Shown: positions 5,126-14,447 of the stretch, piece by piece
How the letters are laid out: every line of letters begins with the position of its first letter
Numbering within the stretch: position 1 is the stretch's first letter
Sequence record: NC_042564.1
DNA length: 14,504 bases
Reading direction: 5' to 3' (one strand)
Source of the DNA: Escherichia phage Bf23
Position numbers and translations under genes: made by a program
Notes under the pieces: model-generated
Database searches by the model: none
The model's input: the letters and a program-made list of their open reading frames with translations, nothing else
Told to the model about the DNA's origin: nothing

Positions 5126-5203
5126 TGGAAGCGGGTGCAGGAATCGAACCTACCTCTTTCTAGCTTATGAGACTAGCGATCTCTACCAGAGATCTAACCC
5201 GCA
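5126..5203 (-). tRNA. tRNA-Met-type (anticodon CAT), possibly initiator-like (position 1-72 unpaired)
   Basis: encoded CCA, T-arm gcagg/aatcgaa/cctac (one G-U), anticodon loop CTCATAA, acceptor 6 bp plus unpaired terminal pair. Confidence 0.55.
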
Positions 5204-6405: not shown

Positions 6406-6591
6406 TTACTCAGCTTTGAGTTTTTCAATAGCTGCATTAAGTTCTTTAAGAAACTCTTTTCGTACATTAAGACGATTGAGACTTACTAGTATATCATGTT
6501 TAAGTTCTTCGATGTATTTCTTCTCAACTTCAATATTGTTGATAGTGCTATCACGATGAACCTCTAGCTGTGCAATTACGTTCTTAGACAT
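6406..6591 (-). CDS. hypothetical coiled-coil protein, 61 aa
   Basis: ORF track; ATG with GAGGAAA SD. Confidence 0.5.
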   Translation of the reverse strand: MSKNVIAQLEVHRDSTINNIEVEKKYIEELKHDILVSLNRLNVRKEFLKELNAAIEKLKAE

Positions 6592-7288: not shown

Positions 7289-7364
7289 TGGACGACCGCA
7301 TGAGATTTGAACTCACATAAAAAGGATTTGCAATCCTTCGCCTAAGCCATTCAGCCAACGGTCG
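7289..7364 (-). tRNA. tRNA-Cys (anticodon GCA)
   Basis: encoded CCA, T-arm atgag/atttgaa/ctcac, perfect anticodon stem aagga/tcctt with loop TTGCAAA, acceptor with one G-U. Confidence 0.75.
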
Positions 7365-7870: not shown

Positions 7871-7881
7871 CTCCTTCAATT

Positions 7882-7956
7882 TGGTGCACCCTGTTCGAAT
7901 TGAACGAACCTCTCAAGCTCTTCAGGCAAGCGCTAATCCATCTCAGCTAAAGGTGC
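7882..7956 (-). tRNA. tRNA, tentative Phe (anticodon GAA); weak stems
   Basis: encoded CCA, perfect T-arm gttcg/aattgaa/cgaac, acceptor 7886-7892/7950-7956 with one G-U, anticodon loop CTGAAGA but two U-U mismatches in stem and only a 3-bp D-stem. Confidence 0.4.
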
Positions 7957-7962
7957 AAATTT

Positions 7963-8033
7963 TGGCAGGGGTAAAGGTATTCGAAACCTTTTCATGGGTT
8001 TTGTAGGCCCATTTGCAACCTATGCGTACCCCA
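7963..8033 (-). tRNA. tRNA-like gene (71 nt) with 9-nt anticodon loop; isotype undetermined
   Basis: encoded CCA, perfect T-arm aaggt/attcgaa/acctt, acceptor with unpaired 1-72, perfect 5-bp stem ATGGG/CCCAT closing a 9-nt loop CCTACAAAA; short D region. Confidence 0.35.
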
Positions 8034-8042
8034 ATTGTTAAT

Positions 8043-8119
8043 TGGCGTCCTGTGCGGGGATCGAACCCGCAAACCCTACCTTGAAAGGGTAGTGACTTTA
8101 CCCGTTTGTCTAACAGGAC
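8043..8119 (-). tRNA. tRNA-Glu (anticodon TTC)
   Basis: encoded CCA, perfect T-arm gcggg/gatcgaa/cccgc, perfect anticodon stem ctacc/ggtag with loop CTTTCAA, perfect acceptor 8047-8053/8113-8119. Confidence 0.8.
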
Positions 8120-8125
8120 TTAAAT

Positions 8126-8213
8126 TGGTAGGGGAGGATGGAGTCGAACCACCCGAGTCGCAATGACAACTAATTTACAGTCAGCTCTGCTACCACTTAC
8201 AGAATACTCCCCC
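8126..8213 (-). tRNA. tRNA-Tyr (anticodon GTA)
   Basis: 88 nt class II, encoded CCA, A73, T-arm gatgg/agtcgaa/ccacc, acceptor 8130-8136/8207-8213 with one G-U, anticodon loop CTGTAAA with two G-U pairs in stem. Confidence 0.55.
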
Positions 8214-8338: not shown

Positions 8339-8367
8339 ATTATACCAAGTTTTAGGGCACTGAGCAA
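8339..8367 (-). promoter_or_regulatory. sigma70 promoter (T5 early-promoter-like)
   Basis: minus strand TTGCTC (revcomp 8362-8367) - 17 nt - TATAAT (revcomp 8339-8344); -35 lies inside the 8358-8396 inverted repeat. Confidence 0.6.
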
Positions 8368-9872: not shown

Positions 9873-9950
9873 TGGTGGCTCCCCGAGGATTCGAACCTAC
9901 GTACCTTCCAGTTATGAGCTGGGTGCTCATACCATATGAGCTTGAGAACC
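9873..9950 (-). tRNA. tRNA with anticodon CAT (Met, initiator or Ile2 type)
   Basis: encoded CCA, acceptor 9877-9883/9944-9950 with two G-U, D-arm gctc/gagc, anticodon loop CTCATAA; T-stem has only 3 good pairs. Confidence 0.5.
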
Positions 9951-9956
9951 AGAATT

Positions 9957-10045
9957 TGGCGGAAGAAGTGGGAATCGAACCCACAAGGCTATATTTCAAA
10001 CCGACAGATTAGCAATCTGCTGCAATACCGTTATGCTATTCTTCC
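9957..10045 (-). tRNA. tRNA-Ser (anticodon GCT)
   Basis: 89 nt class II, encoded CCA, G73, perfect T-arm gtggg/aatcgaa/cccac, perfect acceptor 9961-9967/10039-10045, anticodon loop TTGCTAA. Confidence 0.65.
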
Positions 10046-13575: not shown

Positions 13576-13650
13576 TGGCCGAGGTGACAGGATTCGAACC
13601 TGCATAAAGGAATTTAGAAGACTCCTGCCTCTCCCTTAGACTACACCCCG
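13576..13650 (-). tRNA. tRNA-Arg (anticodon TCT), tentative
   Basis: encoded CCA, T-arm acagg/attcgaa/cctgc, acceptor 13580-13586/13644-13650 with G-U, anticodon loop CTTCTAA with G-U in stem; D-arm poorly defined. Confidence 0.5.
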
Positions 13651-14152
13651 TTTAAGTATTTTTAAGAACTCTCGTAAAAACTCTTAAAAATACAGACGAT
13701 ACCGGGAGAGTCATAAGTCTCACTCATTAAGTATTTCAAGACAAAATACAGTAACGTCTATTATTTTCCAGTTTAAGTCAAGGTGACTTAGTGGTTATGT
13801 CCTGCGGTATGCTGAGGACTCGGTTAGGCTAGGGTCATGACTCCCCACCTTTTTGCTGCTACTCAACAGGAGTTATCGCGAATTACCTGTGCTATTGTGC
13901 ACCATTAGTGGCATCTCTCATGCCAGCATTTCCCACTTTGTGGATAGTTTGAAAAACTACTCCGATATGGAGAAAGAACTTCACTATCCTAGAATACCTT
14001 CTAAAGTTCTTCTTTAGCCTGGACATAGTTAAATCGTAATAAAACTATTCAGCAGACTGGTTGGTTAGTCTGGAACCAACTACCGCGTGGTTTAGGCAGT
14101 GCGCAACTAACCTCGGAAGCTTTTACGTTAAAAGCATCAGTTATCCAGTTCT

Positions 14153-14224
14153 TACCGTCCGTAGGATTCGAACCTACATCTTCCACCAGTTACGGCTTGA
14201 TAATACCAATTATACTAGGACGGC
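14153..14224 (-). tRNA. tRNA-like gene, isotype undetermined (possible pseudogene)
   Basis: perfect T-arm gtagg/attcgaa/cctac (14161-14177) and 6-7 bp acceptor pairing (14154-14160/14218-14224) but no recognizable anticodon stem; CCA not encoded. Confidence 0.35.
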
Positions 14225-14447
14225 AGTGTTACTACATAAGTGATTTCCACACCCCACTATTTATAAATTAGAGAAGAGTTTAGGGGAGAGGTTTCAGACG
14301 CCCCATTTTATACGTTCTAGCCACTAACCGGGATTGCCGCCCCCTGTGTACTAGTTTTACAACTAACCCACCGACTCTATTCAGTGCACTCCGGTTGGGA
14401 TTCTGCACTCAGCGTAATCGGCTCGCTGTTCCCTAATTTATGAATAT

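Follow-up and report, generated by a model that had tools for sequence, protein, structure and literature searches.

The window analysed here is a 14,504-nucleotide (nt) stretch of Escherichia phage BF23 (sequence record NC_042564.1), a T5-like phage, and represents its tRNA gene array; on the minus strand at positions 7963-8033 it contains a 71-nt element that is unannotated in the current genome record. Judged from its sequence, this element is the orthologue of T5 tRNAW(CCA), or T5t20, a structurally reduced tRNA-Trp whose gene family has been known by annotation for two decades. We conclude that it is probably an atypical, transcribed tRNA-Trp gene of the T5 type, and that its BF23 copy, with the anticodon ACA, has lost the reading of UGG codons.

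The 71-nt element and its T5 orthologue

In the T5 RefSeq record (NC_005859.1, 35177-35247) the orthologous 71 nt are annotated as tRNAW(CCA), T5t20, tRNA-Trp, in the matching slot and with matching ends, and the older curated T5 record AY734508.1 gives the order of the unit as P14a, tRNA-Tyr, tRNA-Glu, tRNA-Trp, tRNA-Phe and an open reading frame (ORF). BF23 and T5t20 are identical at 69 of the 71 nt, and over the entire 86-nt gap between tRNA-Glu and tRNA-Phe the two phages differ only twice, both times within the gene (positions 34 and 70 in tRNA numbering). They have in common the Tyr-Glu-X-Phe slot behind P14a, the length of 71 nt, the ends, the short D arm, U1.U72, A26-U44, C31.A39, G73 and an encoded CCA. 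At position 70, C in BF23 forms G3-C70 and U in T5 forms G3.U70; at position 34, T5 has C and thus the Trp anticodon CCA (loop CCUCCAAAA), whereas BF23 has A and the anticodon ACA (loop CCUACAAAA).

The minus strand of 7963-8033 reads UGGGGUACGCAUAGGUUGCAAAUGGGCCUACAAAACCCAUGAAAAGGUUUCGAAUACCUUUACCCCUGCCA, and its parts are the following.

7963-8033, minus strand: atypical 71-nt tRNA gene, anticodon ACA (from sequence, Rfam, ARAGORN -mt and the T5 annotation of the orthologue)
8027-8033, minus strand: acceptor 5' strand UGGGGUA, positions 1-7, pairing with 7967-7973
8015-8025, minus strand: shortened D arm GCA(U)-AGG-(U)UGC, three pairs plus a U.U layer
8008-8012, minus strand: helix 5' strand AUGGG (A26 and positions 27-30), pairing with 7994-7998 (CCCAU, positions 40-43 and U44)
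8007, minus strand: C31, opposite A39 (7999), a non-pairing layer
8000-8006, minus strand: 7-nt anticodon loop C32 U33 A34 C35 A36 A37 A38
8002-8004, minus strand: anticodon ACA, with A34 at 8004
7991-7993, minus strand: variable stretch GAA, 3 nt, preceding the T arm
7974-7990, minus strand: T arm AAGGU-UUCGAAU-ACCUU, a 5-bp stem and a 7-nt loop fitting UUCRANY
7963-7973, minus strand: acceptor 3' strand UACCCCU (7967-7973), discriminator G73 (7966) and encoded CCA (7963-7965)

The initial annotation had described a short tRNA-like gene with T arm, CCA and acceptor, and both the sequence and the minimum-energy structure computed by RNAfold bear this out. In the RNAfold structure there is an acceptor helix, the D stem has 3 bp and a loop of 5 nt, and the 9-nt loop CCUACAAAA is closed by a perfect helix of 5 bp (AUGGG/CCCAU); the T stem, also of 5 bp, carries the loop UUCGAAU, and the sequence finishes with G-CCA. 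The acceptor opens with a U1.U72 mismatch, followed by six Watson-Crick pairs (G2-C71, G3-C70, G4-C69, G5-C68, U6-A67 and A7-U66). The element therefore shows a seven-layer acceptor, a discriminator, a 3' CCA, a T arm, and an anticodon arm with U33 and a purine at position 37. Its D region is indeed short, as had been noted: instead of a normal-size D arm (U8, a stem of 3-4 bp and a loop of 7-11 nt) there is C8 and a total of only 15 nt from A7 to U27, with three pairs plus the U.U layer. A single C8 (8026) links the D arm to the acceptor and AA (8013-8014) follows it; the GG of G18-G19 is kept. The U1.U72 mismatch and the BF23-only ACA anticodon were points absent from the initial annotation.

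The element is a real feature. Its fold energy is not significant alone (z = -1.14), and the Rfam tRNA model (RF00005) matches it with 21.9 bits (E = 0.01 over a 121-nt stretch, at a permissive threshold). Reduced D arms are permitted in the mitochondrial model of ARAGORN (-mt), which does call a 71-nt tRNA; it reads the anticodon as aca in BF23 and as cca in T5, and labels the BF23 element Cys(aca). That call moves the acceptor register by one base, so that the T loop has 9 nt and the terminal CCA is lost; this register was rejected for that of Infernal and of the T5 annotation, which has a canonical T loop and ends in G73-CCA.

Used as a query, the 86-nt gap matched 116 phage records, all of them T5-like, at 90-100% identity. 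In a comparison across the whole block with BF23 as the reference and 11 relatives, the element was 94-99% identical to BF23, against 47-97% for tRNA-Glu, 50-100% for tRNA-Tyr and 33-100% for tRNA-Phe. Only five of the 71 positions (1, a linker base, 26, 34 and 70) vary among 11 distinct variants of the element, and all three helix changes maintain or improve pairing: U1G, found in bastian and mar003J3, yields a G1.U72 pair, A26G still pairs with U44, and C70U still pairs with G3. At 26:44 BF23 and T5 have A-U, the falkor type has G.U and the jumbo-phage contig L041 described below has C-G; C31.A39 is invariant throughout the T5-type family. In mar003J3, SB9 and atrejo the similarity to BF23 halts exactly after the CCA, the sequence downstream being unrelated. 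A degenerate, variable locus in relatives, which had been named as an outcome that would speak against the gene, was thus not observed; the locus is strongly conserved.

These observations bear on the proposal that the element is a chance tRNA-like fold in a decaying spacer and no gene at all. Such a proposal could draw on the z-score of only -1.14 and on the score under the Rfam gathering value. The element is nevertheless the best-conserved feature of the block, its boundaries are exactly tRNA-like, and it is syntenic with annotated tRNA-Trp genes; because of this conservation and synteny we regard a chance fold as refuted, with next to no probability left.

The Tyr-Glu-Trp-Phe block itself is mosaic in T5-like phages (L019-L035), with tRNA-Tyr and tRNA-Glu occurring in very different versions (47-80% identity). 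In mar003J3 and SB9 tRNA-Phe is absent or another sequence stands in its place, and in atrejo it is only 77% identical; in mar003J3 the HNH endonuclease gene hegD comes after the Trp gene.

The anticodon arm and the BF23 anticodon

The 9-nt loop closed by a perfect 5-bp stem, as initially described, was reproduced by RNAfold. We find that it is a normal 7-nt Trp loop beside an open C31.A39 layer, with no insertion. In the Infernal alignment to the tRNA model the stem consists of U27 G28 G29 G30 C31 and A39 C40 C41 C42 A43 around the 7-nt loop CUACAAA, with 31:39 marked as a non-standard pair within a five-layer stem; the first A-U pair of the 5-bp helix corresponds to position 26:44. The ARAGORN -mt drawing likewise has five pairs, then c.a, then a 7-nt loop. 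An identical 17-nt arm of the T5 type, with C34 (UGGGC-CUCCAAA-ACCCA), occurs in an unrelated viral contig (L040), where the standard bacterial model of ARAGORN recognises a canonical tRNA-Trp of 72 nt, with a 7-nt loop drawn above the C.A layer.

In a structure-based alignment the anticodon arm (27-43) is 17 nt long and ungapped in the BF23/T5 type, the canonical T5-like tRNA-Trp, L040, L041 and E. coli trpT. All of these share the loop CUCCAAA except BF23, which differs solely at position 34. One base separates U31-A39 of the canonical T5-like tRNA-Trp and trpT from C31.A39 of the T5 type. Comparable irregularities are found in the BF23 array itself: both tRNA-Gln genes, which are confident calls, have a C31.U39 mismatch under a normal loop, five called tRNAs have a Watson-Crick 26:44 pair, and U1.U72 recurs in one tRNA-Met.

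Stem mismatches are common among the confident BF23 tRNAs; the tRNA-Gln and tRNA-Met genes with mismatches of this kind lie at 2323-2398, 2405-2480 and 5126-5203 of the window (minus strand).

An expanded loop had been taken as a sign of frameshift suppression, that is, of a recoding tRNA whose truly open 9-nt loop offers a four- or five-base or an offset anticodon. Nine bases are indeed unpaired in the thermodynamic fold, C31.A39 is invariant in the family, and according to a frameshifting review enlarged loops can give frameshifting in mutant or engineered tRNAs (PMC5009743). The same review states that enlarged loops need not mean non-triplet pairing, mentions phage tRNAs of non-standard loop size, and names natural loop-size exceptions that are not known to frameshift (PMC5009743). 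In the BF23 element no base is inserted: the arm has its canonical 17 nt, with U33 and A37 placed normally, and the loop is exactly that of Trp tRNAs. The phage tRNAs of odd loop size in the review are, we presume, those of cluster M mycobacteriophages. Because the arm length is canonical, no indel is present and the Trp loop is exact, the loop is not expanded in the frameshift-suppressor sense. Moreover, the same arm serves an otherwise canonical tRNA-Trp in L040, the open 31:39 layer recurs in the two confident tRNA-Gln genes, and no shift site is known or turned up, although no search was aimed at shift sites. A frameshifting role is therefore highly improbable. The canonical fold with a 7-nt loop that had been named as refuting this idea was found, by Infernal for the element and by the standard ARAGORN model for the identical arm of L040. 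As a more general lesson, an open 31:39 layer can mimic an expanded anticodon loop, and recoding should be invoked only once register and arm length have been examined.

The ACA anticodon is restricted to BF23. A 34-nt megablast query with A34 at its centre and within each of its seed words matched BF23 only, and its CCA version had exact matches in 67 records. Diverged relatives and three metagenome contigs also have the anticodon CCA; in all, CCA is kept in 115 of the 116 records plus the three contigs. A second BF23 sequence, OR083247.1 from 2023, is 100% identical to the window over 401 bases around the element; over 9.9 kb the two show six mismatches and two indels, and the window has 4.26 kb extra. 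The presence of A34 in both of these independent BF23 sequences indicates that the base is real and older than the split of the two laboratory stocks.

Bacterial Trp identity comprises G73, the anticodon bases C34, C35 and A36, the pairs G2-C71 to G5-C68 and, as a minor element, A1-U72 (PMC9976931). BF23 retains G73, all four acceptor pairs (G2-C71, G3-C70, G4-C69 and G5-C68), and C35 and A36; two of the three anticodon elements are therefore kept, C34 is replaced, and 1:72 is U.U instead of A1-U72. The element does not match tRNA-Cys identity (U73, anticodon GCA) either, having G73 and ACA. Since A34 removes both an identity nucleotide and the pairing with the G of UGG, the BF23 copy most likely does not function as a tRNA-Trp any more. 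BF23 thereby provides a natural anticodon mutant for comparison with the T5-type tRNA-Trp.

The P14a unit and the role of the gene

The element belongs to a unit of four tRNA genes headed by promoter P14a:

8339-8367, minus strand: promoter P14a, with -35 TTGCTC (8362-8367), a 17-nt spacer and -10 TATAAT (8339-8344), heading the Tyr-Glu-X-Phe unit
8126-8213, minus strand: tRNA-Tyr, upstream, P14a unit
8043-8119, minus strand: tRNA-Glu, upstream, P14a unit
7882-7956, minus strand: tRNA-Phe, downstream, P14a unit

The P14a region of BF23 is 98% identical to that of T5, where AY734508 annotates the promoter. We could not find promoter-like or terminator-like sites on the minus strand between the four tRNAs of the unit. 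The element fills the Glu-Phe gap with spacers of 9 nt and 6 nt, resembling the spacing of other pairs in the array.

Under the interpretation that we favour, the gene would be transcribed from the early promoter P14a in a Tyr-Glu-Trp-Phe precursor, and the RNA, which carries its own CCA end, would be excised by host tRNA-processing enzymes like its neighbours. The GG retained in the D arm would serve the docking on the T loop for which it is needed. In T5 and over 100 relatives the RNA with anticodon CCA is predicted to read UGG and, from its identity elements, to be charged by tryptophanyl-tRNA synthetase (TrpRS). With A as the wobble base, the BF23 RNA would no longer be a tryptophan tRNA, and the gene may be a dispensable one that was crippled recently and whose RNA is still made. 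Such a loss in a single lineage is plausible because the T5 tRNA region tolerates deletions, according to papers cited in PMC11464382. A parallel change of anticodon in one lineage, in the same slot, is seen in phage VEc33 (CUA). The open 31:39 layer, the Watson-Crick 26:44 pair, U1.U72 and the encoded CCA all occur in confident tRNAs of the BF23 array. The initial annotation had left the choice between a recoding tRNA and a pseudogene; the former has found no support, and the latter is a reasonable name for the state that the BF23 copy may have reached.

Several points weigh against this interpretation. The element does not reach the Rfam gathering score of 29 bits, and the bacterial model of ARAGORN does not call it with thresholds lowered to 80% (-ps80). 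The U1.U72 mismatch, C8 instead of U8 and the truncated D arm could hamper folding or recognition. Conservation within one close phage group could partly reflect recent shared ancestry and not selection. The literature searched yielded listings of the T5 tRNA-Trp but no expression, processing or charging data on the gene. The only experimental note, in the T5 record, says that anticodon-replaced T5t20 is not an amber suppressor; T5 tRNA-Glu and tRNA-Phe, which are bona fide tRNAs, bear the same negative note. Finally, that A34 abolishes function is deduced from the identity and pairing rules given above.

It is also conceivable, if unlikely, that the whole 71-nt T5-type family acts outside translation as a non-decoding tRNA-like RNA, for example as a mark for processing of the precursor, or as a decoy or competitor directed at a host enzyme by which tRNA-Trp is recognised (TrpRS, an anticodon nuclease or a modification enzyme), in which case A34 of BF23 would be tolerated or irrelevant. 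This would agree with the failure of standard tRNA finders to see the gene, with the reduced D arm, U1.U72 and C31.A39, with the invariance of C31.A39 even though one C-to-U change would restore the pair, and with the anticodon-replaced T5 version that is not an amber suppressor; phage tRNAs are moreover known to counter host tRNA nucleases (PMC11464382, PMC10644984). Against it stand the strict retention of the CCA anticodon outside BF23, the intact Trp identity elements of the acceptor stem, and the canonical tRNA-Trp that is the alternative occupant of the slot, which indicates an ordinary decoding role; in addition, no E. coli nuclease targeting tRNA-Trp was found in the literature searched. 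It is improbable, too, that the BF23 tRNA has been re-specified, with its ACA anticodon used unmodified or deaminated to ICA and the RNA charged, most plausibly with Trp. Its codons would be UGU and perhaps also UGC or UGA, and the outcome would be replacement of Cys by Trp at a low level or read-through of UGA. Apart from position 34 the element is intact and the same as in relatives that look functional, the ARAGORN -mt label is Cys(aca), and VEc33 offers another single-lineage anticodon change in the slot. The loop CUACAAA furthermore differs only at position 36 from CUACGAA, the loop of E. coli tRNA-Arg(ACG), a substrate of TadA. G36, however, belongs to the TadA recognition motif and the element has A36; CysRS requires U73, and G73 speaks against charging by this enzyme. 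Re-specification would also concern a single phage lineage, Trp at Cys codons would harm, BF23 already has a regular tRNA-Cys(GCA) in its array (7289-7364), and C34 belongs to the Trp identity set (PMC9976931).

A bolder proposal is that the BF23 RNA is a working A34 or I34 tRNA, charged with Trp through G73, the G2-G5 pairs, C35 and A36, with UGU and UGC as its codons and UGA as a further one in the ICA form; if true, it would be a phage-encoded missense or read-through tRNA. In a milder version, the T5-type family would be a functional D-arm-reduced tRNA-Trp in which C31.A39 shields the RNA from a host nuclease or tunes decoding. We consider the two, taken jointly, very unlikely. An atypical T5-type tRNA-Trp gene, with a BF23 copy that has lost UGG reading, thus remains the interpretation that we prefer.

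The preferred interpretation entails a correction of the annotation. The 2023 genome paper, in which tRNAs were predicted by ARAGORN, reported BF23 to be without tRNA-Trp (PMC10644984), because standard tools such as ARAGORN miss the 71-nt gene; BF23 does carry the T5-type gene, with a mutated anticodon. Over 100 T5-like genomes hold an unannotated copy with the anticodon CCA, to which standard tRNA finders are blind.

The BF23 array and related tRNAs

ARAGORN called 23 tRNAs in the window, all on the minus strand, and Rfam found 23 at gathering score; neither had a call in the 86 nt that separate tRNA-Glu from tRNA-Phe. A CCA is encoded in each of the 22 regular tRNAs. Two plus-strand ORFs (7881-8006 and 8035-8166) lie across called tRNAs, and a protein-coding reading of them is not credible.

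The tRNA at 9876-9950 (minus strand; loop CUCAUAA) was found by Rfam (38.2 bits) and not called by ARAGORN; its loop makes it a third tRNA of the array with a CAU anticodon, possibly of the Ile2 type. The gene at 14152-14225 (minus strand), labelled tRNA-Ser(ACT) by ARAGORN and scoring 39.6 bits with Rfam, lacks a CCA and is mismatched at several places in its anticodon stem, and its anticodon assignment looks unreliable. The 4.26-kb segment absent from OR083247.1 (9901-14158) carries tRNA-Ser(GCU) at 9957-10045, tRNA-Arg(UCU) at 13576-13650 and several ORFs, and its junction falls in a 15-nt T-arm repeat, AGGATTCGAACCTAC, found at 9886 and 14163. The absence of this segment probably explains the published lack of tRNA-Arg in BF23 (PMC10644984). 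Extra small RNA genes are listed in the T5 tRNA region: rnaX (RNAX) in records NC_005859.1 and AY543070.1, and RNA3 in AY734508.

The Glu-Phe slot is occupied differently in about 286 further T5-like records, which have a canonical 77-nt tRNA-Trp(CCA) there; the slot thus belongs to tRNA-Trp and holds either of two unrelated types of gene. The canonical type (HdH2, TrudiRoth, Stitch, AKFV33) resembles the element in slot, conserved spacer ends, G73, encoded CCA and the loop CUCCAAA of the T5 form. It is only about 55% identical to the element, has a full-size D arm and U31-A39, and is called by ARAGORN, in spite of its own mismatches U2.U71, U3.U70 and U27.U43.

In VEc33 (MN316588.1; IMG/VR copy L015, 2294-2370) the canonical 77-nt Trp gene has the loop CUCUAAA, and hence the anticodon CUA, seen only in this phage. 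The gene is amber-suppressor-like and is labelled tRNA-Pyl(cta) by ARAGORN.

A more distant look-alike is found in L041 (IMGVR_UViG_3300012980_000004), a 393-kb jumbo-phage contig, at 6513-6582 within an array of 14 tRNAs. This Trp-like gene of 71-72 nt is not called by ARAGORN, and its best Rfam match is the tRNA-Sec model (25.8 bits). It has the same anticodon arm with C31.A39, together with C26-G44, A1-U72 and G73. Its D arm, GUGC-AGG-GCAC, is similarly short and differs from GCAU-AGG-UUGC of BF23 by changes on both sides of two pairs; because L041 was found through a search with the anticodon arm, independent evidence is limited to the D arm and the 26:44 pair. A Trp-Phe module common to L040, L041 and BF23 was considered and rejected, as similarity among their Phe genes is only 52-64% and each is at least as close to E. 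coli pheV.

Host trpT, whose sequence was confirmed, shares with the element G73, the pairs G2-C71 to G5-C68, the 17-nt anticodon arm and the T loop UUCGA, and with the T5 form also the loop CUCCAAA. It is 59% identical to the element and differs in A1-U72, a normal D arm, U31-A39 and A26.G44. By blastn, the element had no match in the full set of E. coli genomes, which indicates that the element is not a recent copy of host trpT.

Frameshift-suppressor and quadruplet-decoding tRNAs (mutants of the sufD and sufA6 type, and engineered forms) are similar in having more than seven bases between the last Watson-Crick pairs. They carry an inserted loop base, whereas the BF23 element has a canonical arm length and a mismatched 31:39 layer instead.

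Conserved tRNAs with truncated D arms are rare in bacterial viruses, and the T5-type tRNA-Trp is one example. It recalls the reduced-D-arm tRNAs of animal mitochondria in its short D arm and in being seen only by the mitochondrial model of ARAGORN, but unlike them it has retained a fully canonical T arm, the GG in its D loop and an encoded CCA. What the two have in common is architecture alone: this is a gene of a bacterial virus, without an evolutionary link to mitochondria.

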